Shown: positions 4,839 to 43,400 of the stretch, one piece after another
How positions within the stretch are numbered: position 1 is the stretch's first letter
Layout: every line of letters begins with the position of its first letter
Source: Mustelus asterias
Lineage: Eukaryota
Assembly: GCF_964213995.1 (NCBI RefSeq)
Contig: NC_135825.1
Location: 12,524,001-12,588,000 of the forward strand
Reading direction: 5' to 3'
DNA: 64,000 nt
The notes under the pieces: generated by a model
Seen by the model: the letters and a program-made list of their open reading frames with translations, nothing else
The model's database searches: none
What the model was told of the DNA's origin: nothing
Made by a program: the position numbers and the translations under genes

Positions 4839-5945
4839 CATAGAAACATAGAGACTAGAAGCAGGAGGAGGCCATTCAACCATTCGAGCTGACTCCCCCA
4901 TTCATTTTGATGATGGCTGATCATCAAATCCAATATCCTGATCCCCTCTTTCTCCCATATCCCTTGATCCCTTTCGCCCCAAGAGCTATATCTAATTTCT
5001 TCTTGAAATCAGACCACATTTTGGCCTCAACTACTTTCTATGGCAGTGAAGTCCACACATTCACCACCCTCCGGGTGAAGAAATTTCTCCTCACCTCAGT
5101 TCAAAAATGTTTACCTCTTAAACTCTGACCCCCGAATTCAGGTCTCCCCCACCATTGGGAACATTCTTGGTAAATCTATCCTTTCTAACCCTGTTAGAAA
5201 TTTTATAAATTTCTATGAGATCCTCTCTCACTCTTCCAAACTCCATTGAATATAATCCTAACCGACTGAGTCTCTCCTCATATGACAGAACTGCCATCTC
5301 AGGAATCAGCCGGGTAAACCTTCGCTGTACTCCCTCTATAGCAAGGACATCCTTCCTCAGAGAAGGACACCAAAACTGCGCACAATACTCCAGGTGCGGC
5401 CACACCAATACTCTGTAGAATTGCAGCAAAATATCCCTATCCCGATACTCAAATTCTCTGGCTATGAAGGTCAACATACCATTTATCTTCTTTCGTGCGT
5501 GCTGTAACTGTGTGCTTACTTTCAGTGACTGACACATGAGGTCTTGTTGCATATCCACATCTCTCAATTTACACCCATTCATCTGTCTTCATATTGCTAC
5601 CAATTGGATAACCTCACATTTATCCACATCATACTGCATCTGCCATGCAGATGCCCACACACTCATCTTGTCCAAATCACGCTGGAGCATCTCTCCATCC
5701 TCCTCACAGCTCACCCTCCCACCCAACTTTGTATCATCTGCACATTTGGAGATAATACATTCAGTTCCCTCTTCCAAATCATTAATATATAACGTGAACA
5801 GTTGGGGTCCCAGCACAGACCCCTGTGGAACCCCACTAGTCACTGACTGCCAATCAGAAAAAGGCCCATTCATGCCAACTCTTTGCTTCCTGTCTGTTAA
5901 CCAGCTTTCGATCCATCTCAGTACATTACCTGCAATCCCATGTGT
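4839..5945 (-). mobile_element. CR1 LINE 3' fragment
   Basis: SGVPQGSVLGPQLF, ADDTKLGG, PHLEYCAQFW. Short-repeat 3' tail near 4839. Confidence 0.92.
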
Positions 5946-15300: not shown

Positions 15301-18300
15301 GACAATGAAATGAGGTTAACTGGGGAGATCTTCCAGTGAACCAGCATTAAAGTGATGGCAGAATCTCCTCCCTCTGGGCTAGAAAATTCCATCATTCCAG
15401 AAAATTACCTTGTCCTAAAAATTAAATGTTTCAAATTCCACCCCCCCCCCCCCACCCCCCGCCCCCACCCCCGCAAAAAATATCCCTGCTTACAAAGAAC
15501 AAATAAAAGTACAGCACAGGAACAGGCCCTTCGGACATTCATCCCCTGCCAATCATGATGCCCCAACTAAATTTTTTTTAAAACCTTCTGTCCTTACTCA
15601 GTCCATATCCCTCCATTTGGTCCCTATTCATGCACCTATCCAGATGCCTCTTAAATGTTGTTAATGTGCCTGCTTCCACCATCTCCTCTGGCAGCGCGTT
15701 CCAGGCACCCACCACTCTGCATGAAAAACTTCCCCCAAACATCTCCCTTAAACTTTCTCCCCCTCACCGTGAATCTGTGCCCCCTTGTAATTGACACTTC
15801 CGCCTTGCAAAAAAGCCTCTGACTATCCACCCTGTCTATGCCACTCATAATTTTGCAGACCTCTATCAGGTCTCCCCTCAGCCTCCGTCTTTCCAGTGAA
15901 AACAATGCTAGTTTATTCAATCTCTCCTCATGGCCAACACCCTCGAGACCAGGCAACATCCTGGTGAACCTTCTTTGCACTCTCTCCAAAGCTTCCATGT
16001 ACATCTGGTAGTGTGGCGACCAGAACTGCACGCAATACTCCAAATGCGGCCTAACCAAGGTTTTATATAGCTGCAACATGATTTCCCAACTCTTGTACTC
16101 AGTGCCCCGGCCGATGAAGGCAAGCATGCCATATGCCTTCTTAATCACCTTGGCCACCTGTGTTGCCACTTTTAGCGAACTGTGGACCTGCACGTCCAGG
16201 TCTCTTTGTATGTTAATGTTCCTGAGGGCTCTACCATTGACAGTGCCATTCATGCCTGAATTTGATCCTCCAAAATGCATCACCTCGCATTTGTCCGGAT
16301 TAAACTCCATCTGCCATTTCTGTGTGCAAGTCTCCAGTCTATCTATATCTTGTTGTATCCTCTGACAATCCCCGGCACTATCAGCAACTCCACCAACCTT
16401 TGTGTCATCCATAAATTTACAAATCAGACCACCCACATTTTCCTCCAGATCATTTATATATACTACAAACAGCAGAGGTCCCAGCGCTGATCCCTGTGGA
16501 ATACCACGAGCTACAGATCTCCATTCTGAAAAACACCCTTCCACTTTAGTCTATGTGAATGTTGCAGTTTTGTTTTCTGCAGAGTGGGAGGAACACGTTT
16601 CCCAGTGGTTGTTCTGGTTAAAAACAAGCGCAAAATGGCCAGAAAGCGAAGAGAATTCCATTTGCCACTGGAGATTGTAAGAACTGCAAAAGCAAAGCTA
16701 TTTCTTTCTTACATTTTGGAACAAATGATTTACTAAAATGCTCTAAGATAATCAATGCCGACTGGAGGGTGGTTGGAGGAAGGGTGGATAGGAGAGGGTC
16801 TCCCACCGGCAACGTGGACCATTATAATTAAACTGGTTTGTGGTGTTCACGGCCAGTGAGTGAAGATTCCCTGCGTGACTGCAAGCTCAGAATACTGACC
16901 CCAAGTGACAGGAAATGACCGTTCTCAATGATGGCAAGTGACGGTTTAATGTCTTGATGAGAAATTGATGACAAAAAGGGGAATCTCTGGATTGAAATTC
17001 ACCAATCTGAGCTCATTACCTGACCCATGAGTAACTGTCTACCACCAACTCTCAGATATGGGAAATAAAATGAAATTTCCAGTAAAAATTGGCCAGATAT
17101 CAGCCGCTTCTCTATTGCGACCAGACGGGGGGATAATTACACAGAAATCAGACCTTTCCTCAAGCACTGAAGTTCCATTTCACAATGACGCTCTCTCAGT
17201 TGACTACAAGTGAAAATGAGGTGAATCTGAATGTTATTCTTATGTTTCAACAGAACCTAAATATTCATGTGAAGTTTCTACAACAGAATCACCAACTACA
17301 ACACATTCCACAAGTACAAATATCATTTCCACTGGTAGCTACAGCGAATCTTCAGAGTTGGAAAATGATGAAAGGTACAATGTTCTCATTGGGGGTGTAC
17401 TGATTAGCACGGATTTCTATGTAACGGATGAAATGTTCTTTAACACATTTGGCCTAAAGGAGACAACGTTGTTTATTGTTTTGTAATGTGGCTGATCAGA
17501 ATGGAAATGGTGGCCGGGCTCACATCGTGCTGTTGTGTCAGCATTCTAATGAAGGTCCAATTCTTTGTCATTGGAAATTACAAATAAGGGGCAGAATTGT
17601 CTTGCCCAGTGTTTCCCACTGCACAGCTCAATGGGAAGCCAGGCCTTATCTTCCATCCAATAGGGTGGCATGGTGGCACAGTGGTTAAAACTGCTGCCTC
17701 ACAGCGCCAGGGACCCAGGTTTGATTCCCGGCTTGGGTCACTGCCTGTGCGGAGTCTGCACACTCTCCCCATGTCTGCATGGGTTTCCTCTGGGTGCTCC
17801 GGTTTCCTCCCACAGTCCAAAAGACGTGCTGGTTAGGTGCATTTGCCATGCTAAATTCTCCCTCAGTGCACTCAAACAGGCGCCAGAGTGTCGCAACTAG
17901 GGGATTTTCACAGTAACTTCATTGCAGTGTTAATATAAGTTTCCCTATGACTAATAAATAAACTTTAATTTTTTTTTACTGTGCAATTAATTTTGTATCT
18001 GGGGGTTTTGCACCATCTTCCCTGGCAGGGTGGGCTTGAGGGCATGTGTCCCACTATCATATCCGGGTGACATATTGTAAGGGCATCAGGTATCACTGAG
18101 TTATCATTGAAGAAAGAGGATGGATCTCTTGAAGAAAGAAAATGGACCTCCAGAAACACTCTGAGGCTGGAAGATGGACAGTGTCACTGATGCTGGAAGA
18201 CCCACCTGATAGATGCTTCGCCCACCCATTGATATGGTGTTCCAGGAGCCAGGGTCACGAGCGGACTCCATCACAACCTCTGAAGGCAGCCCCAGGCCTT

Positions 18301-26597: not shown

Positions 26598-27154
26598 ATG
26601 ATGTGGAGATGCCGGCGTTGGACTGGGGTGAACACAGTAAGAGTTTTAACAACACCAGGTTAAAGCCCAACAGGTTTATTTGGTAGCAAATACCATTAGC
26701 TTTCAGAGCGCTGCTCCTTCGTCAGATGGAGTGGAAATGTGCTCTCAAACAGGGCACAGAGACACAAAAATCAAGTTACAGAATACTGCTGCTTTCTTGC
26801 ATGTTTGTAGAAACTTGTCTGTGTCGATATGCGCGACCTTCTTGGAGATCCTCTCCACTTGGAGCCGGCAGTTTGCGGTGTCAGCTCCACATTATGACTA
26901 CCATCGACTCCGCAAACTGCCGGCTCCAAGTGGAGAGGATCTCCAAGAAGGTCGCGCATATCGACACAGACATCAAGTTTCTACAAACATGCAAGAAAGC
27001 AGCAGTATTCTGTCACTTGATTTTTGTGTCTCTGTGCCCTGTTTGAGAGCACATTTCCACTCCATCTGACGAAGGAGCAGCGCTCCGAAAGCGAATGGTA
27101 TTTGCTACCAAATAAACCTGTTGGACTTTAACCTGGTGTTGTTAAAACTCTGAC
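26598..27154. mobile_element. Palindromic Penelope-derived mini-element
   Basis: Arms of about 150 bp are reverse complements. 14-bp TSD tgtcttctactttc (26584-26597, 27155-27168). Hammerhead-like core in each arm. Confidence 0.85.
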
Positions 27155-29489
27155 TGTCTTCTACTTTCCAGCAGTGACTACACTTCAAAAGTATTACATT
27201 GACAAATGATGTCTGGTGATCATAAAAAGCACAATATAAATGCACAACTTCCTTTCCTTTGACACAAAAGGACTAAGGGAACAAATTTGGCTTCACATCT
27301 AACTCTTGTCTCCAAAACAGAGATTCATGCTTGAACTCCGAGATTGATCGTACAATTCAGACTGAACTTTCATTGCAGTACTGAGGGAATGCTGCATTGT
27401 TGGAACTGTCATTTTCTTTGGATGGGACATTAACCCCTTCTGCTATCTCAGGGTCAATAAAAAAATCCAGTGGCATTATTCAAATAGTTCTCCCAGTGAG
27501 AATAATTATTCTGTAAGCAACATCAATGAAATAGATAATCTGCTTTTTCATCTAATTTGGGGTTCTTCACTGTGTGGTGCATCTAAGCTCCATCTCTCTG
27601 TTTCAAAAATACTTCACTGGCCATGAAAGGCATTGTGTGAATTGCAAGTTCCTCTTTTCTCATGAATTTCATTTTTTCATTGTGACAGTTTCTTATCAAT
27701 TCCTCGTGTTTACTCTGAACTTTGGGTCTGATTATTACTTCAGGGACTTTGGCAAATGCATTTTGAAAGTTGTAAGACTAACCAGAGTCAATGAGGGAGA
27801 TGTTATTACTCAGAGAAGTCATGAAGGTTGCTTAGGCAATAGCTTCTGATATCAGTCGATGTTACTCTTTATTTTGTTATATCTATATTTTGAAATACAG
27901 ATATTTCTCAAGTTTACTCTATACGATAACTTCTATTATTTGTCATGAGTGGGAGTGAAACTAATGCTTTTGTAAGCCAATGAAGTCGTTTCTGAAAAGA
28001 TTCCAGAGTCTTCAGGGGTCACACATGGGAACAGCCATGAATCCAGTAACCGCCGGCACCATAGCACCATGGTTAGCAGTGATGCCTCACAGCACCCGGG
28101 ACCCGGGTTCAATTCCAGCCTTGGGCAATTGTCTGCATGGAATTAGCAAGTTCTCTCCGTGTCTGTGTGGGCCTCCCTTGGGTTCTCCAGTTTCCTCCCT
28201 CAGTCCAAAGATGTGCGAGTTAGTTTGATTGACCACGCTAAAATTGCCACTTAGTGTCAGGGGGATTAATAGGGTAAATATGTTGGGTTAAGGGGATAGG
28301 CCTAGGTGGGATTGATGTCAGTGCAGGCTTGATGGGCTGAATGGCCTCCTTCTGCACTGTAGGGATTGAAACAACAGGATTATTGAATATCTATCTCATC
28401 GGCTATCACAAACGTCTTCACTTGAGGTTGAGCCTAAAAATAGTGTTCATACGGTTGGGATAGATCAGGAGAAAATCACCGACAAAGTAGCAAAATGGGG
28501 GATGGGATGATCCCAATCGTGGGCAAGGCACCCACTAGGGTTACCAACCCTCCAGGATTGGCCTGGAGTCTCCAAGAATTGAAGCTCAATCTCCAGGACA
28601 CTGCCATGTGGGTCCCTGAAGAAAAATCATCGGGACATTTAATAGCATCTTTTTGGGTCATTTTCTTTGAATATTTCTCTTTACCAGGTCTCAAAGTGTT
28701 GAAAACAGGCTGTTTGACTAACAGCCAAGCATCGTCCAATTGGGTACTGTGGGTGGGATTCTCTGCCCTCCCAGCTGCGTGTTTCTCGGTGACGGGAGGT
28801 GGTGAAATTCGCGGGCGACGGGATCTTCTGGTTCTGTCGCTGGCAATGGGAATTCCCGTTGAAACCATCCCACACCGCCGGGAAGGGGCCGTGCCACAGA
28901 CAGGACCAGAGAATCCTGCCGGCTTGAACAGCCTGCAGATTCCAGCCTGAGTATTTTATCTTTCCAATTTCCGTAGGAAGGCAGCACATCTCAAGTGTGG
29001 ATATGTTGGCCAAATGATGGCCTGGAGCAGGTCATGGCAGGTCATGTGATGACACATCCTGGAATACACCTAATCATGATGGTTAGGTGCATTAGCCATG
29101 CTAAATTCTCCCTCAGTGTACCCAAACAGGTGCCAGAGTGTGGCGACTAGGGGATTGTCACAGTAACTTCATTGCTGTGTTAATGTAAGCCTACTTGTGA
29201 CACTTATAGATAATAACGAATAAATAAACCACAGTTGACAACACAAGTACTCACTGAGACCCAAGCCTGGCTGCCAGACCTTTGCCAATGGCTAGCCTGA
29301 GGCATCCATGAGATCATAGAATCAAAGAATCACAACAGTGCAGAAGGAGGCCATTCGGCCCATCAAGTCTTTACTGACCACAATCCAATCCGGTCCTATT
29401 CCTGTAACCCCACATATTTACCCTTTAATCCGCTGACACTATGGTCAATTTAGCATGGCCAATCAACCTAACCCGCACATCTTTGAAGG

Positions 29490-30320: not shown

Positions 30321-30840
30321 ACAGCTGGGCTTCAGTGAATGAGTGAGTGCGTGGGTGCAGTTTCAATATGGCACCCAGGCCTTCGAGCCAATGAGGAAAG
30401 AGCCTGCTGGGCCAATCGCTGCCTTCCCAGCTGCAAGATTCGATGAGCTCCTCGCTGATTGGCAAACAATGAGCTGAAAAGCAGACCATGTGGTGTGAGA
30501 ACCCACCCTGCTGTCCAGTGGGATTCGCGCTGACTTTCCTGTCCGGCACCAGACATTGTGTGAGATTTTCTTTCCCCGCCCACTGCCAGGATCACCCGGA
30601 CCCACTAAGTTAATGGACCTTAGGCTAGGCCGCCAAATCTTCCCCAATTCTCACCATGATAGTGCCGGAAATTTCCGGCCTTAGTCTACGGAAGGGAGAA
30701 CTCCACCCATTGTAACCCCCTTCTGGCAGCAACTGTCAACAGGTCAGCAAGGAGACAGATAGAGAGCTGTGCCACCTGTTGCAAGGGTAACTGGATTCCA
30801 ATGAGGGCAATATTCAACTGACACCTCCATTGTAGAGGAA

Positions 30841-32389
30841 TGATGTGGAGATGCTAGCGTTGGACTGGGGTGGACACAGTAAGAAGCCTCACAACACCAG
30901 GTTAAAGTCCAACAGGTTTATTTGGTATTATGAGCTTTCGGAGTGCTGCTCCTTCATCAGTTGAACGGAGAAGTAGGTTTCACAAACATGGCATGTATCG
31001 ACAAAGACCAATTAGAAGATCATGGTTGGAATGCGAGTCTTTTCAGGTAATCAAGTCTTTACAGGTAAAAACAATATGAGTGGAGAGAGGGATAATCACA
31101 GGTTAAAGAAGTGCGAATTGTCTCAAGCCAGGACAGTTAGTAAGATTTTCCAAGCCCAGGCTAATGATGGGGATTACATGTAGTGTGACATGAACCCAAG
31201 ATCCTGGTGGAAGCCATCCTCATGCGTGCTATCAGTTTCTGCTCGTTGTTTCTGCGTTGTCATGTGTCTTGAAGGCCGCCTTGGAGAACACTTATGCAAA
31301 GAGCGGAGGCTGAATGCCCTTGACTGCTGAAGTGTTCCCCGAGTGGAAGGAAATGCTCCTGCCTGGTGATTGTCAAGTGCTGTCCATTCATCCATTGTCG
31401 TAGCGTCTGCATGCTCTCGCCGATGTACCGTATCTCAGGACATCCTTTCCTGCAGCGTATCAGGTAGACAATGTTAGCCGAGTTGCATGAGTATGTATTG
31501 TGTACCTGGTGGATGGTGTTCTCACGTGTGATGGTGGTATCCGTGTCGATGATCCGGCACGTCTTGCAGAGGTCACTGTGGCAGGGTTGTGTAGTGTGGT
31601 CACTGTTCTCCTGAAGGCTGGGTAGTTTGCTGCAGACAATGGTCTGTTTGAGGTTGTGCAGTTGTTTGAAGGCAAGTAGTGGGGGTGTGGCGATGTGTTC
31701 GTCTTCATCAATGACATGTTGAAGGCTCCGAAGAAGATGTTGTAGTTTCTCCACTCCAGGGAAATACTGGACAATGAAGAGTCGGTCATGTCCTGTGTTT
31801 CCTTCTGAGGAGACCGGTGCGGTTTTTCGCTGTGACGCGTCGCAACTGTTGATCTATGAGTTGAGCGCCATATCCCATTTCAAACAAGGGCATCTTTCAG
31901 TGTCTGTAGATGTCTGTTGCATTCCTCCTCATCTGAAAAGATCCTGTGTATACGGAGGGCTTGTCCGTAAGGGCATGGCTTCTTTAACATGTTTAGGGTG
32001 GAAGCTGGAGAAATGGAGCATCGTGAGGTTAGCCATGGGCTTGCGGTAGAGTGAAGTGCTGAGGTGACCGGCCTTGATGGAGGTGCGCGTGTCCAAGAAT
32101 GCAACCGATTCTGGAGAGTAGTCCATGGTGAGTCTGATGGTGGGATGGAACTTGTTGATGTCATTGTGTAGTCGTTTCAGTGACTCTTCATCATGAGTCC
32201 AAAGGAAGAAAATGTCATCGATGTATCTTGCAATTGTGTCTTTGTTTATACATGCCATGTTTGTGAAATCTACCTCTCCGTTCACATGATGAAGGAGCGG
32301 CACTCCAAAAGCTCGTGATTTCAAATAAACCTGGTGTTGTGAGACTTCTAACTGTGCCCATCCCAGTCCAACGCTGGCATCTCCACATG
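30841..32389 (-). mobile_element. 5'-truncated, degenerate Penelope-like element with inverted terminal repeats
   Basis: RT motif RYIDDIFFLW and GIY-YIG region NIVYLIRC..C...YIGES. Frameshifts present. The terminal sequence at 30841 recurs inverted at ~32280-32389. Confidence 0.88.
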
Positions 32390-32917: not shown

Positions 32918-33190
32918 TGATGCACCTCAATGAGCACCCGGAAACAAGGCTTTAGAACTGAAGGCTTTAATACATTAACAATGAAACTACTAACACAAAT
33001 TCACCCGTTCAGACTGAAGGGGTCCTGCCGGAGCAGGGGGTCTTATACCCTGCCACCGGAGGCGGGACCCCACTGGAGTGTGCCATGATAACACTTGGGA
33101 CAGGTAAACACCCTATCCCAACAACATAGTACAACCCCCATAACAACAACAATAACAACCCCAGTGGTGAACCAACGATGGTTCACCACA
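32918..33190 (-). repeat. 3' LTR of the Gypsy element
   Basis: Identical to 37323-37595. Preceded on the minus strand by PPT AAGGAGGGGTGAA (33191-33203). Confidence 0.97.
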
Positions 33191-33262
33191 TTCACCCCTC
33201 CTTTAGGAACCAAAGGTGGCGGGGTGGATGAAAACAGACAATGACAAAAAAAATAACAGGAT

Positions 33263-36200
33263 TCACAAGTCCAGACGGTCTGGAGGACCACACCGACGCT
33301 GCGATCTTCTCAACACCGGTTGCGAAACCAGAGCAGGTGCTTGCGGTGGCTCTCTCAAAGCAACATCTGGCTGTCCCCTCAAAGACTCCCGGGCCGGCCG
33401 GCCCTGATGAGGCGATGGTGTAGGGGATCCTGGAACGTTTGGTGGTGGTGGTGGTGGTGATGATGGTGGCGCCGATCTCCGAGTCTCAGGCAAGCTGTAC
33501 ATGGGAGTAAAAGTGTTATGCACTGGTCCCGGTGCTGACCGCGCCACGTCTGGGGAAGTAATGAGGAGTAGTGGATCTGTGACTGGGGGAATAGGAGCGA
33601 CAGGAGTTGCTACGTCCCCTGCGGGCGCCAGGTCTCTAATGGAGACAGTGTCCTCTCGCCCGTCAGGATATGCCACATAGGCATACTGAGGGTTGGCGTG
33701 GAGGAGTTGGACCGGTTCGACCAAGGGGTCGGACTTGCGAGCCCTCACATGGCGCCGCAGAAGGACGGGTCCTGGGTACGTCAACCAGGCTGGCAATGAG
33801 GTCCCCGAGGACGACTTCCGAGGGAATGAGAACATCCTCTCGTGGGGAGTAGCATTGGTTGCCGTACACAGGAGGGAGCGGATAGAATGGAGCGCAGTTG
33901 GAAGGACCTCCTGCCACCGGGAGACTGGAAGGCCCTTGGATTTCAGTGCCAGTAGGACAGCCTTCCAGACTGTAGCATTCTCCCTTTCCACCTGTCCGTT
34001 ACCCCTAGGGTTGTAGCTCGTGGTTCTACTGGAGGCAATCCCGAATGAGAGCAGGAATTGCCTCAAGTCGTTGCTCATGAACGACGAGCCCCTGTCGCTA
34101 TGAATATAGCAGGGGTACCCGAACAGGGTAAAAAGCTCACTGAATGCCTTGATGACGGTGGCAGTCGACGTGTCCGCACAGGGGAAAACAAACGGAAACC
34201 GGGAAAATTCGTCTATTATGTTAAGAAAATAGACATTCCGATCCGTTGAGGGAAGGGGGCCCTTAAAATCTACACTCAGCCTCTCAAAAGGGCGAGTGGC
34301 CTTGACCAAATGTGCCCGGTCTGGTCGATAAAAGTGTGGTTTGCATTCTGCGCAAATCCGACAACTTCTAGTAACTGACCTGACCTCCTCCACCGAGTAG
34401 GGTAGGTTGCGGGCTTTTATGAAGTGGTAGAGTCTGGTGACTCCAGGATGACACAGATCATTGTGGAGAGCCTTCAAGCGGTCCTCCTGCATGATGGCGC
34501 ATGTTCCGCGCGAGAGGGCATCCGAGGGCTCATTGAGCTTCCCTGGACGATACATAATATCGTAATTATAGGTGGAGAGCTCAATTCTCCACCGCAAGAT
34601 CTTATCGTTCTTGATCTTGCCCCTCTGCGTGTTACTGAACATAAACGCCACGGATCGTTGACCCGTGATCAGGGTGAACCGCTTACCTGCCAGGTAATGG
34701 CGCCAGTGTCTGACTGCCTCCACAATGGCCTGAGCCTCCTTTTCCACCGCTGAGTGCCGAATCTCTGGGCCTTGAAGGGTGCGGGAAAAAAACGGGACGG
34801 GCCTGCCTGCCTGGTTTAGTGTGGCGGCTAGGGCGAAGTCCGATGCATCACTCTCCACCTGGAAAGGGATGGATTCATCCACCGCGTGCATCGTGGCTTT
34901 CGAGATGTCGCTTTTCAAAACCTTGAAGGCCAATTGGGCCTCCGGCGTAAGTGGGAAGATCGTGGACTTAATGAGCGGACGAGCTTTGTCCGCGTAGTTG
35001 GGGACCCACTGTGCATAATACGAAAAGAACCCGAGGCATCTCCTCAGTGCTTTCGTGCTAGCGGGCAAGGGAAGTTCAGTGAGTGGGCGCATACGGTCTG
35101 GATCAGGGCCAATGACCCCGTTTTCCACCACGTATCCGAGGATGGCTAACCTACGCGTACGGAATACGCACTTCTCCCTGTTATAGGTCAGATTCAGGCG
35201 AGATGCAGTGCGTAGAAAGTGTTGGAGATTCGTGTCGTGGTCCTGCTGGTCATGGCCGCAGATGGTGACGTTATCCAGGTACGGGAAGGTAGCCCGCAAC
35301 CCGTTCTGGTCCACCATTCGGTCCATAGCACGCTGGAAGACCGAGACCCCATTGGTGACACCAAATGGAACCCTGAGGAATTGGTATAGACGACCATCCG
35401 CCTCAAAAGCCGTATATTGTCGGTCCTCTGGGCGGATGGGGAGTTGATGGTAGGCGGACTTAAGGTCTATGGTAGAAAACACTCGGTACTGCGCAATCTG
35501 ATTGACCATATCAGAAATGCGCGGGAGAGGATACGCATCCAGCTGCGTGTATCTATTAATGGTCTGACTATAGTCGATGACCATCCGAGGTTTGTTCCCG
35601 CTTTTGACTACCACGACCTGCGCTCTCCACGGACTAGCACTGGCCTGTATGATCCCTTCCTTGAGGAGCCGCTGAACCTCAGATCTAATAAAGATCCGGT
35701 CCTCAGCGCTGTAACGCCTACTTTTAGTAGCGATGGGCTTGCAGCCAGGTACCAGATTTTTAAAAAGGGATGGTGTCGTGATCTTCAGGGTGGATAGATT
35801 GCACGCGGGGCGTTTTGGGCAATTTGGAGGCTGCGGCTGGCTCCCTACGGCCAGTGAAGGGAGTGGCCCACCGTACTGTAGGATCACACTCTTCATGTGG
35901 ACCATAAAATTTAGTCCGAGGAGAATTGGCGCGCAAAGGTGAGGTAACACAAGGAGCCTGTATTGCTCGTAAACTGTGCCCTGTACCTCAAGAGTTACCA
36001 TACATTGTCCTTGGATCGGTACAGACCGGGACTGTGATGCCATGGAAATGGTCTGCTTGGCAGGGAGAACCCGGAGTCCACACCTTTTAGCAGTTTCAGG
36101 GTGTATGAAACTTTCGGTGCTCCCACTGTCAAACAGACAATTTACAGTTCTGCCACTAACCTTTACCTCCATCATAGAATGTTCCAGTCTGAAATGCCTG

Positions 36201-37300
36201 GTCTGATCCAGAGAGATCGACGCCACCGTTGGCCCCTGGGCGTCACTGCATGCTGCCGATGTGGATGCTGAGGACCCCTGCTGGTCGCTGCTGCATGCTG
36301 CCGATGTGGATGCTGAGGACCCCTGCTGGTCGCTCCTAGTCGTCGTGGACCATGATGGCCGCCCCCATGAATCGCATGTGGCCGAGGGCTCCAAGCGCAG
36401 CGACTCCTGGTGGTCTTCCTCCTCCTCTGTTTGCCACGATGGCGCTGTCCTGAGATCGCACGTGGTCGGACCTCGTGGGTACTGCGACGCCGAAGGAGAT
36501 TGTCTCCGTTCTGGAGGGTTACAAGCTGCACTGCCGTTTTTACGTTTGGACCTGCAGACTTTGCCGTCGTGGCCTTTTTTACCGCACTGGCTGCAGATTG
36601 CCGTTCTTGCTGGACACTGCTGCCGTGGATGCTTAGCCCCACCGCAAAAATAGCATCGCTGGCCCCCTGGAGCTGCCGCCGTCGTCGAATCGATCTGGGA
36701 GCGCGGGTTCGCAGGGCGAGGAGGGAGCAGAGCTTGCTCCAACCACGTTGACTGCACGTGGTCCTCGGGGTACAGCGCCAAGCTCTTCGACGCCGCCTCC
36801 AACCTCACGGCCATCCCCATTGCCTGGGTCAAGTTGAGTTTCCCCTTTTCTAATAATTTAAGTCTGATGTACGAGGACCCTACCCCTGCTACGAACGCGT
36901 CTCGGGCGAGGTCTTGCATGTACTGCTCGGCGGAGACATCCTTACAGTCACAACCCCTGGCAAGCTGCAGGAGTTCATTGGCGTAGTCTTCTATGGTCTC
37001 GCCCGACTGCCGACGTCGTGTAGCGAGGAGATAACGAGCGTGAATCTCGTTGGGTGGCGTAATGTACCTATTCTTTAGGAGCTCGACGGCACCCTGGTAA
37101 GTGGAAGCTGCACGAATGGCTAGGTAAATCGTGTCGCTTACCCTTGCGTGGAGGACCTGGAGTCTATCAGTGTCTGTAGTGATAGCTACCGAGGCTGCCA
37201 GGTAGTCCTCGAAGCACTTCCACCAATGTTCGAACGTGTTAGCTGCACCGACCGCACGTGGGTCCAGTGTCAGACGATCCGGTTTTAGGATCTGTTCCAT
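33263..37300 (-). CDS. Gypsy gag-pol polyprotein, 1345 aa from first ATG (MEQILKPD...)
   Basis: Double CCHC knuckle (CYFCGGAKHPRQQC, CSQCGKKGHDGKVC), protease LFDSGS, RT (IDLKSAYHQL, PFG, YLDN), RNase H (ESDASD, VEKEA), integrase HHCC and D-D-E (SVDFKG, HSDRG, QVERE). Confidence 0.95.
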   Translation of the reverse strand: MEQILKPDRLTLDPRAVGAANTFEHWWKCFEDYLAASVAITTDTDRLQVLHARVSDTIYLAIRAASTYQGAVELLKNRYITPPNEIHARYLLATRRRQSGETIEDYANELLQLARGCDCKDVSAEQYMQDLARDAFVAGVGSSYIRLKLLEKGKLNLTQAMGMAVRLEAASKSLALYPEDHVQSTWLEQALLPPRPANPRSQIDSTTAAAPGGQRCYFCGGAKHPRQQCPARTAICSQCGKKGHDGKVCRSKRKNGSAACNPPERRQSPSASQYPRGPTTCDLRTAPSWQTEEEEDHQESLRLEPSATCDSWGRPSWSTTTRSDQQGSSASTSAACSSDQQGSSASTSAACSDAQGPTVASISLDQTRHFRLEHSMMEVKVSGRTVNCLFDSGSTESFIHPETAKRCGLRVLPAKQTISMASQSRSVPIQGQCMVTLEVQGTVYEQYRLLVLPHLCAPILLGLNFMVHMKSVILQYGGPLPSLAVGSQPQPPNCPKRPACNLSTLKITTPSLFKNLVPGCKPIATKSRRYSAEDRIFIRSEVQRLLKEGIIQASASPWRAQVVVVKSGNKPRMVIDYSQTINRYTQLDAYPLPRISDMVNQIAQYRVFSTIDLKSAYHQLPIRPEDRQYTAFEADGRLYQFLRVPFGVTNGVSVFQRAMDRMVDQNGLRATFPYLDNVTICGHDQQDHDTNLQHFLRTASRLNLTYNREKCVFRTRRLAILGYVVENGVIGPDPDRMRPLTELPLPASTKALRRCLGFFSYYAQWVPNYADKARPLIKSTIFPLTPEAQLAFKVLKSDISKATMHAVDESIPFQVESDASDFALAATLNQAGRPVPFFSRTLQGPEIRHSAVEKEAQAIVEAVRHWRHYLAGKRFTLITGQRSVAFMFSNTQRGKIKNDKILRWRIELSTYNYDIMYRPGKLNEPSDALSRGTCAIMQEDRLKALHNDLCHPGVTRLYHFIKARNLPYSVEEVRSVTRSCRICAECKPHFYRPDRAHLVKATRPFERLSVDFKGPLPSTDRNVYFLNIIDEFSRFPFVFPCADTSTATVIKAFSELFTLFGYPCYIHSDRGSSFMSNDLRQFLLSFGIASSRTTSYNPRGNGQVERENATVWKAVLLALKSKGLPVSRWQEVLPTALHSIRSLLCTATNATPHERMFSFPRKSSSGTSLPAWLTYPGPVLLRRHVRARKSDPLVEPVQLLHANPQYAYVAYPDGREDTVSIRDLAPAGDVATPVAPIPPVTDPLLLITSPDVARSAPGPVHNTFTPMYSLPETRRSAPPSSPPPPPPNVPGSPTPSPHQGRPARESLRGQPDVALREPPQAPALVSQPVLRRSQRRCGPPDRLDL

Positions 37301-37322
37301 ATTCTCAGTTAATGTATTAAAT

Positions 37323-37595
37323 TGATGCACCTCAATGAGCACCCGGAAACAAGGCTTTAGAACTGAAGGCTTTAATACATTAACAATGAAACTACTAACA
37401 CAAATTCACCCGTTCAGACTGAAGGGGTCCTGCCGGAGCAGGGGGTCTTATACCCTGCCACCGGAGGCGGGACCCCACTGGAGTGTGCCATGATAACACT
37501 TGGGACAGGTAAACACCCTATCCCAACAACATAGTACAACCCCCATAACAACAACAATAACAACCCCAGTGGTGAACCAACGATGGTTCACCACA
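37323..37595 (-). repeat. 5' LTR of the Gypsy element
   Basis: Identical to 32918-33190. Minus-strand TATA-like GGGTATAAGA near 37447-37456 and ATTAAA at 37371-37376. Confidence 0.97.
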
Positions 37596-38474
37596 GAGTG
37601 TTTCAGATCCGACTCTGAGACCCATTCTCAGGAATCCCAGTACGCACACTGCCTGAAAAAAACCCAGCAATTCAGAATCGCGCTGCAGAAGCCTGTGGGC
37701 GGGGCTTAACCCGCCCGAAACGCTGCAGCTCCGATCGGCGCCTCCAACTGCGCAGTAAAAAAAAAAGAAAAATTCTCCCCTGTCACATCCCTCCCGGGCC
37801 GGGTAATGCCTCCTCCTGGCCCCCACAGACATTGCCCCACCCCCACAACATAACTGACCTCCTTATCCCCCCACCTCCCTCGCTACCCAGACCGATCACG
37901 GCCCCCCGCCCCCCCCTTCCCCCCCCCCACTAATCACATGCAGAGTGGCAGCAGACCTCCCCCTGGCCCTGTCCCTGCACCCCCCGCTCCCCACTGGAGA
38001 GCCATCTGACCCGCCTCCCTCCCCACCCCCACCCTCCAGAGAACAATCTGACCCGCCTCCCTCCCTCCATCCCTCCCCCTCCACCAATCTGAGTCAGAGA
38101 GCCGTTGGAAGCTCTGAACTCACCTCCTCAGAAGCTGGAGCGCCCAAAGCAGACCTTTGCCGAGCATATCTGTTTCGCGCTGAATCTGGACGGGCGAACG
38201 CGGTGGTGAAGGGGGAAGTGCTGGTAAGTTTGGGCGTGCAGCCCATTAAGTCAATTTAAATGCATGCAAATACATTTAAATTGATATTGCGCCCGTTTCA
38301 GGCGCGATCCCGATCGTGGCCATTTCAGGCCCTTGGTAAAGGGGGAATCTGTGCGGAGGTGGTCGTGGATCGTGCCACTCGCCTTACGCCGGATTTTAGC
38401 AAGTTTTCGTCCCCGAAAATGGGCGCATCTTGATGGTAAAATCAGGTCCAATGGGTCATTTTGACACAGATTGA

Positions 38475-38645
<171 letters not shown>

Positions 38646-40443
38646 TGAGCATCGCTTCAGTCTCTGCCTCATTCACTTTAACAGAGTCCCCGAGTGTTCC
38701 TCACCCTGAACTGGACAAGGCTCGAGAAGCGATTCGGAAACAACTCCCCATCAGCTGGTGAAATATGTGACTGTTGGTGAAAATGGAGAAGCAGCTTAAA
38801 CCGTCACTCCGGTTTAACCATTGATATTCTCTTTCTCCACGTCAGACCTGGACATTTCCAAATTTACTGCAAATTATCTGACAGAGAACATTCAATCTCA
38901 TTCAGACAACTGTTCAAACCCCTGAATAACAAAGACGCTAGAACAGGTCCTCCAATCCCAGTACCTTTGAATCAATATTCAACACAACATGATCTGAGCA
39001 CAGCCACAGAAAGGGACAGGTTCAAGGAGAATAAAACACAAATTCAAGTTTCTCAGACCCTTCTCGGAACTGGGGTAATGAAAGACACCAACAGACTCGT
39101 TTTGAGCCAGAGTAGAATGAGGGAGAGGCAACTGAGAGATCAATGATTCCAATAAATCAGGGTCAAGAAACAAGTACAGGCTCGAGAGAGGCATTCCAAA
39201 CTCTATGCCTGACTCTCACTCTCTTGATGTGACAGCAGAGAGTTCAGGTGCTTGATGACAGAGGCTCAGACTTTGGATCACCAAATGTATCCAAATGTTC
39301 CAGTGGAGTTTACCCAGGGTACCAGACACGTTTCCCAGTAAAGAGCACATCATCAGGTGGCACAGTGGTTAGCACTGCTGCCACACCGTGCCAGGGAGCC
39401 GGGTTTGATTCTTAGTTTTGGTCACTGTCTTTGTGGGGTCAGCACATTCTCCCATGTTTGCATGGGTTTCCTCCGGGTGCTCCGGTTTCCTCCCACAGTC
39501 CGAAAGATGTGCTGGTTAGGTGCATCGGCCATGCTAAATTCTCCCTCAGTGCACCCGAACAGGCGCCAGAGTGTGGCGACTAGGGGATTTTCACAGTAAC
39601 TTCATTGCAGTGTTAATGTAAACCTGCTTGTGACTACTAAATATCAACTTAAACTTTAACTTTAAGTTCTTGCTGAGTCAATCAGACTCAATTTCTTCCC
39701 ATGTCTCGGAGTTTGCCCTTCAGATGGGGGAATTAACTTGGGTATAGTGTGTCAAGATACACAGAGCTGATGGCTGGGGTTTAGCCAGTTTAATATTCTC
39801 ATTGTTTGAAGAAAGTGCCATTCTCCAGCCTCACTCACCGCCAACTACGTATAGGGAAATACACAGCCCCGTGTCAGGGAGTTGAGAACAACTATCATCA
39901 CATTGGAACAGTTAGTCAATCACAATTTACTTACGCCCAGAGTCTTCTCTCTGTGAATTGAGGTCCTTTTCTGCCTGAAATCTGCCTCAGAACGTGTTTG
40001 TGTGTCTGGTAAACGGAACAATAGAGGTTGTTCTACCCGACATCTAGGAGCTCAGATCTCCTCACCCTGACAGAATTGTTCCTCATCACCAACAACAAGG
40101 TTGAGATTAAGCAAATAAAACAAAACATTAATAAAACATGCCTCACAATTCAGTGGAAGTAATTAGCCTGAGTCACCAATAACCACCTTCTTAACGCTGC
40201 TTTATTTTTTACTCTCTCAGTGCAAGCTGGTGTAGCTCTTTTGTTACATGTGACTGACAAAAGTTCAAGACCTTACAAGCTAGATTTCATTCTCTGGCTC
40301 ACTGTGCTTGCATGACATAACTTCCTGCTGTCTCCTTCCCCTTTTTAAATTCCTTCTCCAATTTATATTAAACACTTATTTCAGCATGAGACACAGGAGC
40401 TGGGGGACTGACAACAAACACTGATCTGACCTCCAACAAAACG

Positions 40444-40480: not shown

Positions 40481-43400
40481 GTGAGTAACAGCCAGAGTTG
40501 GATAGTCAGATAATCAGTGTTAGTTTAACTCTAGTCTACAGATTATACGGCAGAGATGTTTAAACATTTGGAGACTTGTAAAGGCACAAAAGGAAGTTTT
40601 GTGTTGCAGTGGGTGGAGGCTCTTTCTCTGAGCAGAAGCTCCAGGTTTGAGTCCTGCTTCTGCTCTTGATGGGAATGGAAGGTGGGTTCTAACAAGGCCA
40701 AACAGTTTGATTATCAACCTGAAAACTGTTCCAACACGCTGAAGGCAGGCGGTAAGAGGGAGAGATAGTCAGTCAGTCATGGTTGAGGCGGAGTGGTGTC
40801 CCTCATGCGTTAATAGTTGTGAATGGGAAATTAAGAACTATTCAATTTTTAAAATCCAGGCAAGTAACATTTTAAAAATGGAAGCTGTTTTTAACTGGTA
40901 ATTGTTTGAAATATTATCTGTTGTGCAATACACACTGAAAACTGCTGTGGTAATAATCCTGAAAACAGAACATGTCCCTAGTTAGCTATTGTTTCTGTTG
41001 TTTAATGTACATTTGTAGAGATATGATTTTATGAGGCTCTGTCAGTAACAATGTTCCTCTATAGGAGATGGTTGGTCGATATTAGAACAAAGAGAACAAA
41101 GAAATGTACAGCCCTCTAAGCCTGTGCCAATCATGATGCCCGAACTAAAAAAAATCCTTCTGCCCCGACTCGATCTGGATACTTCTATTACTCTTCCCAT
41201 TCTTTTTCTTTTACATAAGAACATAAGAAATAGGAGCAGGAGTAGGCCATCTAGCCCCTCAAGCCTGCCCCACCATTCAATAAGATCATGGCTAATCTGA
41301 AGTGGATCAGTTCCACTTACCTGCCTGATCCCCATAACCCCTAATTCCCTTACCGATCAGGAATCCATCTATCCGTGATTTAAACATATTCAACGAGGTA
41401 GCCTCCACCACTTCAGTGGGCAGAGAATTCCAGAGATTCACCACCCTCTGAGAGAAGAAGTTCCTCCTCAACTCTGTCCTAAACTGACCCCCCTTTATTC
41501 TGAGGCTGTGCCCTCTAGTTCTAGCTTCCTTTCTAAGTGGAAAGAATCTCTCCACCTCTACCCTATCCAGCCCCTTCATTATCTTATAGGTCTCTATAAG
41601 ATCCCCCCTCAGCCTTCTAAATTCCAACGAGTACAAACCCAATCTGCTCAGTCTCTCCTCGTAATCAACACCCCTCATCTCTGGTATCAACCTGGTGAAC
41701 CAAAACCTAATTTAGTTCTTTTAATTCTTTAACTTCATTAAACTGAATTTCTCTTTTCATTCCTGTCCATTTTAAGGGCGGCACGGTGGCACAGTGGTTA
41801 GCATCGTTGCCTCACAATGCCAGGGACCCGGGTTCAATTCCGGCCTTGGGTGACTGTTTGCAGTCACCCAAGAGGTTTGCACATTCTCCCTGTGTCTGCG
41901 TGGGTTTCCTCCGGGTGCTCCTTCCACACTCCAAAGATGTGCAGATTAGGTTGATTGGCCATGCTAAATTGCCCCTTAGTGTCAGGGGGATGAGCAAGGT
42001 AAATACGTGGGGTTATGGGGATTGGGACTACGCAGGGTTGTTGTCAGTGCTGGTTCGATGGGCCAAATGGCCTCCTTCTGCACTGTAGGGATTCTATGAT
42101 TCTCTGATTCTATGATTAGCTAATACTACATTGCAATGGAGTTCTTGATCAACATTATCAACCCTCCACCATTTACAATACCTTCTCACAAGCAACGTCA
42201 AACTCTAGTCCCGTCTTCTCGAAGCCTCTATTTTGCTAATTCTACACATCAAACCTCCCCACAATGTGCTGTGCCTTCAGTTTACCGATTTGATGCAGAT
42301 TACTTCATGTACGTGTGGACGGCAACTGAAGTGTGCTTCTGTCTGTTTGACAATCTTTGTTTGTTCAATCCTTCTTCATTCTGACCTGATCTCTTTTCCA
42401 CTACATTTTCATCTTTAATCCTTCCTGCACCTTTTCCCTTTTCTTCCCTTCCCTTGAGTATTTTAATTGTTTGGAATCTCCATCCTGTCATTTACTGTAA
42501 ACTCTTTCCTCAAGAGTTCCTCTCCCAGCAAGCCCATTGGTCTAATAACTCTTCAAGCCCGTTCCTTGGGCTGCTCCTCTTTTACACTTGGGATCAATGT
42601 GGCAGGAATCTCACTTTTCTCACTTTTCTCATGAATCATCTTTCCTGAAAAATTCTTCCTTTTGTTTCCTCACTATTCTTATCCTGACCACCACATGACA
42701 CTGGGGAATGATTCTGTGTTTATTCCCCTCCAGATCCGGCTCAGTGATCAGTCTCCAAGTTTCTGAATCTTCTCAGCTCTCTGCCTTTCTATGTTCTTGG
42801 TTGCCTGAACCTTCCCTTTCCAAATCCTCCTTCAGAACAGGCCGCAGAGAACAAGGACGAGAGGCTGGAAATTCTCTCGACAGTTTACGTTTCGCTGATT
42901 GAATTGGAGAAGACTCTCTGAATTAACTTGTTGCTGCTGTTTGAAAGAAAGAATTGCATTTCCATAGCGTCGTTGTTGTAATGGAGAAAAAACAACTTTT
43001 TCCTTCAAACAGCAACACAATAATGACTGAATAATCTCTTTTTTCAGCAGGATAAATATTGGTGAAGACACACTGGAGAATTCACCTGCTCCTCTTCACA
43101 ATACCACCATGGGGAGGTTTACACCCACCCGGGAGGGCAGATAGTGTCGTGATGGTTACCTGCCCAACTCCCGCTTGCTGCGAAACCATTCACCACCCCA
43201 TTCATTGCAATTTAGCACCCGATCTCCCCATGAAATCTGCATCATTCGCAACAGAACCTGCTTTCAAACTATGCACACTCCCATCTTTCCACTGCCACCC
43301 TTCCAAGGGGTCTCATTTCCCCCCAGGCCACCAATGGCCCAAACCCAGGCCTCTAATTTCCCTGATTCATCCAAGTCTTCCCCAGGTTTCCAGTCTCCTC

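Follow-up and report, generated by a model that had tools for sequence, protein, structure and literature searches.

A leader paired with the poly(A)-signal segment of its own LTR suggests self-priming in a Gypsy retrotransposon of Mustelus asterias

How does an LTR retrotransposon begin reverse transcription when its leader offers no site for a tRNA? The question is raised by a complete Gypsy LTR retrotransposon on the minus strand of a 64,000-nt stretch of Mustelus asterias DNA, which was analyzed at its full length and is referred to here as the window. The preliminary description of this locus had reported that only 22 nt without a TGG-type tRNA site separate the 5′ LTR from the gag ATG, and that the leader is a perfect 14-nt complement of an LTR segment containing ATTAAA, across a 49-nt loop. 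Both observations were borne out. The features of the element are as follows, with copy counts referring to the own-genome alignment described below.

37596..37600, second copy 32917-32913 (minus strand): target site duplication (TSD), CACTC
37323..37595 (minus strand): 5′ LTR, 273 nt, TG...CA, identical to the 3′ LTR
37447..37452 (minus strand): TATA box of the predicted promoter
37417..37422 (minus strand): initiator-like TCAGTC, with a predicted transcription start at ~37420
37371..37384 (minus strand): LTR arm, the proposed self-primer, which ends in the poly(A)-signal variant ATTAAA (37376-37371)
37368..37370 (minus strand): GCC adjoining the LTR arm, GCC in 142/144 copies, where GCC was part of the search anchor
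37322 (minus strand): spacer base between the CA of the LTR and the paired leader, A in 142/144 copies
37322-37301 (minus strand): leader, 22 nt, without TGG; gag ATG at 37300
37308..37321 (minus strand): leader arm, located where a primer-binding site is expected and exactly complementary to 37384-37371
33263..37300 (minus strand): single gag-pol ORF, 1345 aa, with protease at aa 378-466, RT at 566-724, RNase H at 785-911, and integrase at 938-1098
33191..33204 (minus strand): polypurine tract, then TGAA, abutting the 3′ LTR
32918..33190 (minus strand): 3′ LTR, 273 nt, TG...CA, identical to the 5′ LTR
32971-32966 (minus strand): copy of the hexamer in the 3′ LTR, without a downstream leader partner

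The domain order PR-RT-RH-IN, the TG...CA LTRs, the TSD, and the polypurine tract place the element in Ty3/Gypsy, and its best solved-structure match was Ty3 Gag-Pol (E value, 2e-62). Two CX2CX4HX4C motifs were read from the translation, where Pfam made no call for them. Pfam matched no chromodomain in the whole ORF (E ≤ 0.001) or in its last 198 aa (E ≤ 1). An inverted repeat of ~11 bp opens each LTR (37595-37569 and 33190-33164, minus strand), where U3 might begin with a hairpin; the LTR of a sister family starts 277–338 nt before the LTR end, so the region of the U3 start is variable in length. The gag–protease linker carries an in-frame 45-nt tandem duplication, 91% alike (36236-36325), and the last bases of the polypurine tract, next to the TG of the LTR, are GAA (33194-33191), as they also are in L157, L158, L159, and L160, which are distant relatives described below. 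Two C-rich 42-nt copies, 79% alike, lie just outside the 5′ LTR (37980-38063). Elsewhere in the window, ORFs at 5118-5582 and 15651-16412 (minus strand) resemble what we take to be the ends of CR1-type LINE reverse transcriptases, and dispersed repeats that are 60–92% alike (28054-28367, 39350-39634, 41779-42093, 26598-26685, and 30840-30927) are presumably SINE or LINE fragments. A long array of near-identical tRNA genes with ~1.8-kb spacing was also observed in the genome (G000 C16, 97.2–98.7 Mb; L395-L424).

The leader from 37321 to 37308 complements the LTR from 37384 to 37371 at 14 of 14 positions, with the arms 49 nt apart. Pairing starts 1 nt past the final CA of the LTR, which is the position of a primer-binding site. 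Folding from the predicted start gave all 14 pairs at a probability of 0.95–1.0, and the fold had a z-score of -3.53, with 1 of 200 shuffles equally good. A match of this kind might have arisen by chance or as a side effect of hairpin mutagenesis or of assembly. The arms are A/T-rich, and under a loose null drawn from window DNA (any 25-mer against the preceding 273 nt) 44 of 9,031 places reached at least 14 nt, a count that may include repeats. However, when leader and LTR were shuffled 20,000 times with dinucleotide content preserved, no 14-nt match arose (best 13, once). Genome-wide, 1,038 junctions matched the ATTAAA-type pattern and 922 matched one AATAAA-type pattern, compared with 0 in the reversed-pattern controls, which also argues against chance.

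The family is young and abundant in its host: 14 of 40 scored LTR–leader matches were 100% identical (1,864 candidates). For its clade, which is very abundant, a first look at the host genome gave 14,781 gag candidates. A search of this genome with the gag starts of three distant relatives yielded 89 loci, which together with the window formed nine clusters with 55–76% gag DNA identity to the window. With 60 more copies of the window's type added, 144 of 150 rows could be anchored, and L086, L109, L118, L122, L125, and L127 were dropped. Pairs 1–13, counted from the junction, were Watson–Crick in 134–143 of these 144 own-genome copies. The rows are non-independent, since ~60 of them closely resemble the window's type, and 30 were drawn with a pattern fixing pairs 1–6. 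Pair 1, in which the last A of the arm meets base +2 past the CA of the LTR, holds this register in the 144 anchored copies and in the five distant relatives described below. Pairing then dropped sharply, from 136 copies at pair 13 to 100 at pair 14 and 39 at pair 15, and this limit of 13–15 nt appears primer-like in length. The arm contained AATAAA or ATTAAA in 141 of the 144 copies. Most families pair AATAAAA with TTTTATT; in the window's type, pairs 4 and 7 are altered on both sides and the variant hexamer ATTAAA is retained. Three copies belonging to a close sister of the window show differences at four arm positions, all of which are compensated.

Compensatory changes, for which the preliminary description had proposed a test, were found at 11 of the 14 pairs among 24 representatives, where 79 double-changed cells were counted against one wobble-type change. 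In this set, 96.1% of cells were paired compared with 70.5% after shuffling (0 of 500 shuffles), although the representatives were picked by hand with a bias to well-paired copies and kinship inflates the shuffle test. Slid-partner controls were 36–51% paired, and an unguided consensus fold recovered 13 of the pairs and only that stem. At pairs 7–13, compensated changes occupied 8 of 42 site-by-family cells, compared with single changes in 42 of 298 cells in the loop and 42 of 240 in the upstream R; double changes are thus about as frequent as neighbouring single-site changes. One-sided shared changes equaled the compensated ones in number (8/42), and several compensated polymorphisms were double transversions. 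The covariation already refutes chance, hairpin mutagenesis, or assembly as the origin of the match, and we regard this origin as extremely improbable.

A lack of the complementarity in related elements would, according to the preliminary description, have refuted its proposal; instead, the complementarity recurred well outside the host. Protein relatives in the RT-RH region were 74–83% identical in rays and catsharks and 58–64% identical in nematodes, a sea anemone, a tunicate, and a damselfly, and of 6,558 candidates, 1,030 counted as relatives at E ≤ 1e-80. When genome_contigs was scanned with 32 aligned relatives, 14 loci emerged; these seem to be animal DNA in bacterial bins and are probably host contamination. 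The stem was kept in the same register in all five relatives with an LTR–leader–gag junction (45–64% identity in the best pol segment), and its recurrence in independent assemblies is a further argument against chance. The stem and loop measured 13 bp and 50 nt in L157, 14 bp and 51 nt in L158, 10 bp and 39 nt in L159, 14 bp and 39 nt in L161, and 15 bp and 31 nt in L160; for L157, L158, and L160, each a circular contig carrying a single LTR, the LTR end was inferred. The spacer after the CA of the LTR was 1 nt in all five, and GC or GCC followed the arm in four of the five. Three loci from the same scan with IN before RT had TGG leaders, and the stem was absent from them. The unscored loci were L162-L164, L166, and L170, in which the gag start or LTR is missing, and L169, in which the LTR end is undefined. 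The proteins P0017 and P0042 of L157/L158 carry bacterial-integrase labels.

The RT-RH tree, built without a Tf1 or sushi reference, united the window with its sister families and with the five relatives as one clade (100/100), separate from the other sequences included, on a stem branch of 2.2 changes per column. P0004 and P0005, which we take to be Mag-like, fell outside this clade, as did seven distant loci (24–32%) from metagenome_contigs, and a search of viral_contigs returned no relatives. A search of the own genome with PF16297 gave no match, and none of its PF24626 matches yielded a usable chromovirus element. Taken together, these results show that the LTR/leader pairing is a real and conserved feature.

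What, then, does the pairing serve? To our knowledge, no mature tRNA 3′ end can pair with a leader that lacks TGG. The absence of a tRNA partner claimed in the preliminary description held for the tRNAs compared: the best match between the leaders and host tRNA 3′ ends was 1 nt among 36 sequences (10 anticodons, 7 amino acids), and the best internal match of the window leader was 7 nt, in an incomplete tRNA set that does not contain the primers of the TGG control elements either (6 nt). A stronger argument comes from the leaders themselves, which vary between families in one host, each following its own LTR. Since the leader tracks the LTR family by family, a fixed host tRNA could not have followed it. 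Some form of self-priming is very probable on the sequences compared, because the register is fixed at the primer-site position and masking of the poly(A) signal alone would not need this.

As to the route, we consider it reasonably probable that the leader is the primer-binding site and that the LTR arm, released by an internal cut, is the minus-strand primer that replaces a tRNA. Transcription would start ~50 nt before the 3′ end of the arm, and the LTR arm would anneal to the leader. A cut at or beside the AAA/GCC boundary (37371/37370), made by the element's own RNase H if the analogy with Tf1 applies, would expose a 3′-OH. RT would then copy the 49-nt loop, and the strong-stop DNA would jump to the 3′ R through the few bases that separate the hexamer from the poly(A) site. 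In the final step, plus-strand synthesis would copy the primer and rewrite the leader, so that both arms would change together.

This route departs from Tf1 in where the RNA is predicted to begin. A TATA box lies 82–89 nt before the 3′ end of the arm in eight of nine gag clusters and 106–108 nt before it in the ninth. The A of a T(C/T)AGT motif follows the TATA by 32–34 nt in eight of the nine clusters and stands 50–55 nt before the junction (74–75 nt in one cluster). The arm is accordingly predicted to lie ~36 nt downstream of the start, inside R, unlike the primer of Tf1. Four sequence runs that contain the element (X1-X4) consist of contigs and yielded no RNA starts, RNA ends, or poly(A) junctions. 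With such a start, the primer left by one cut would be ~50 nt long, which exceeds the 13–15 paired nucleotides. The sharp limit of pairing would suit a short primer in the exact geometry of Tf1, in which the RNA starts at or just before the arm and its first 13–17 nt are the primer; several families have an initiator-like CA motif a short way upstream of the arm, and alternative starts occur in Tf2 (PMC5341516). We nevertheless consider this geometry unlikely, as the TATA/TCAGT-type spacing indicates the upstream start and no TATA lies 30 nt ahead of the window's arm.

The internal-cut route uses the 5′ arm, and the same arm exists in the 3′ LTR, where it is predicted to be mostly unpaired. 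Priming might instead use this 3′ R arm, shortened to the hexamer by trimming or cutting, or else a fragment from a second packaged RNA, and sequence alone cannot distinguish the copies. Priming in trans would give copies with a T arm and the leader allele of another subfamily. Mismatches were analyzed at pair 8, for which the first 100 of the 922 junctions, read by eye, gave arm/leader combinations of T/A in 58, G/C in 35, and others in 7. Mismatched copies carried the leader base of the other subfamily in 40 of 50 cases with a T arm (C 40, G 5, T 5), well above what random changes would give, and in 41 of 43 cases with a G arm, of which ~11 are segmental duplicates, and they were often flanked by sequence of their own type. 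For 21 G/A copies both LTRs were available, and the 3′ LTR matched the leader in 15 of them; among 46 concordant copies there was 1 such case (with a CpG-type change excluded). The TSDs were intact in 13 of the 15. Of 14 G-arm copies with a T-type U5, read by eye, seven combined a T-type gag with leader A, and no copy combined it with leader C. At first sight, such copies resembled the two strands of a single intermediate.

Other polymorphic LTR sites, however, were equally mosaic between the two LTRs (0–3 of ~34 and 0–7 of 14 concordant copies), so the pattern of arm/leader mismatch is not specific to the stem, and general mosaicism of subfamilies accounts equally well for the discordant copies. 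In addition, the 5′ arm is only 49 nt from the leader and pairs at the high probability given above, and should win over a 3′ copy. Priming from the 3′ copy is, for these reasons, an improbable variant, and the 5′ arm is preferred as the source of the primer. Paired LTRs at L261-L380, with the TSD mostly intact, often differ at subfamily-diagnostic sites (up to 7/14 copies at one site), which exceeds what point mutation would give. One mismatched copy recurs ~11 times (L256-L260 and the small contigs C136, C271, and C326-C339) and probably sits in a segmental or tandem duplication.

The preliminary description proposed that one stem both primes minus-strand synthesis and masks the 5′ poly(A) signal. 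For priming, the compensated pairing across the clade and the fixed register argue in its favor; for masking, the argument comes from folding, in which the hexamer was predicted to be 0–4% unpaired at the 5′ end and 30–92% unpaired in the 3′ LTR. Masking is attractive because R would carry the hexamer at both ends, and hiding of the 5′ signal by the stem would likely be a side benefit of priming. The near-constant presence of a hexamer in the arm, together with this folding contrast, would also suit a stem that merely hides the 5′ signal, and perhaps tunes translation, while a host RNA or some other route supplies the primer. That explanation leaves the one-base register to the LTR end unaccounted for and finds no other primer site in the 22-nt leader. 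Moreover, the loops of L159 and L161 contain a further AATAAA beyond the cover of the stem, the arm of L160 has AGTAAA, and the 3′ LTR requires the hexamer regardless. It is therefore unlikely that the stem serves masking without priming. The poly(A) hairpin of HIV-1 and the U5–leader stems of retroviruses are known cases in which pairing hides AAUAAA or joins U5 with the leader. Both arms of the HIV-1 hairpin are within R and a tRNA still primes, whereas the second arm of the window element is outside the LTR, at the primer-site position.

Self-priming from the element's own RNA, which the preliminary description gave as known for Tf1/sushi-type elements, agrees with the literature, in which the primer-binding site of these elements is complementary to their own 5′ LTR and a tRNA site is absent (PMC7175516; PMC4600332; PMC10085805). 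Tf1, whose 11-nt primer comes from the start of its RNA and is released by RNase H (PMC7175516), shows that such chemistry exists. The window element resembles Tf1/Tf2 of Schizosaccharomyces pombe, Tj1, and Tosmo1-3 as a Ty3/Gypsy element with an LTR-complementary primer site and no tRNA site, and its clade has a similar paired length (13–15 nt compared with 11 nt in Tf1). It differs from the Tf1/sushi chromoviruses in that no chromodomain was detected. Its two CCHC motifs have no counterpart in the fission-yeast members as they are described, and it has a single ORF, whereas the other members are mostly described with a -1 frameshift. In the window clade, the arm overlaps the poly(A) hexamer and its predicted place is inside R, whereas the RNA of Tf1 opens with its primer. 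Loops were more folded than shuffles in 3 of 24 cases (z < -1.64), with the first loop base paired in 20 of 24 minimum-energy folds. As the loops show no excess of structure over shuffled sequence, the three-duplex "pretzel" of Tf1 is unsupported here.

Other named groups were compared as well. The primer site of CsRn1 corresponds to tRNA-Trp, unlike the window leader, which lacks TGG. The window element is similar in size to fish "CsRN1" (4.3–4.6 kb, with LTRs of 174–302 nt; PMC11117352), and its LTR start TGTGGTG fits the CsRN1 5′ motif TGTGGYG, but its LTR end TGCATCA does not fit the 3′ motif MSYYAMA (PMC3601003). Self-priming has also been predicted for the Gypsy element Tcn1 and the Copia lineage TAR, by a criterion of at least 10 nt of LTR complementary to a stretch 0–5 nt past the 5′ LTR (PMC6317226), and the window element has such a stretch. 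Unlike the window clade, Tcn1 and TAR are plant or fungal, Tcn1 being a chromovirus and TAR a Copia lineage, and an overlap with the poly(A) signal goes unmentioned in the part of PMC6317226 that was consulted. "Selgy," which the preliminary description named as a self-priming invertebrate Gypsy group, proved to be a plant clade specific to Selaginella moellendorffii (PMC6317226). It likewise comprises short non-chromovirus Gypsy elements with an ORF filling the internal region, but it is not called self-priming in the same part of that source. Membership in Selgy was rejected for the window element, whose named relatives, listed above, are animals.

No motifs matching the clade were found in the searched supplements of PMC6238403, PMC2836005, and PMC11117352, and the clade names "Smaug" and "Self" were not found in the literature searched. 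In the open full-text literature, which leaves Repbase, GyDB, and subscription journals outside the scope, we found no description of an animal non-chromovirus Gypsy clade with a primer site that pairs with the poly(A) signal. The clade was compared with CsRn1, Cigr-1, and MolGy by description only and could already bear such a name, and it may already be recorded, or noted as self-primed, in repeat databases.

The broadest reading of these results, which we offer tentatively, is that a large chromodomain-less Gypsy clade of cartilaginous fishes, cnidarians, tunicates, nematodes, and insects acquired self-priming independently of Tf1/sushi. In these elements, the poly(A) signal would be the 3′ end of an internal primer, one 14-bp stem would both block early 5′ polyadenylation and start reverse transcription, and the leader would be rewritten from the LTR in each cycle. 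The young families with natural stem variants allow a direct test of this reading through RNA and cDNA ends. If it is true, annotation tools that require a tRNA site would overlook or misclassify such elements, and the elements would presumably lack the site that is targeted by LTR-silencing tRNA fragments. tRNA-free priming would then extend past the Tf1/sushi chromoviruses and the predicted plant TAR to a very abundant animal Gypsy clade, and an internal primer ending in the poly(A) hexamer would represent a new route of primer making that couples 3′-end processing to reverse transcription.
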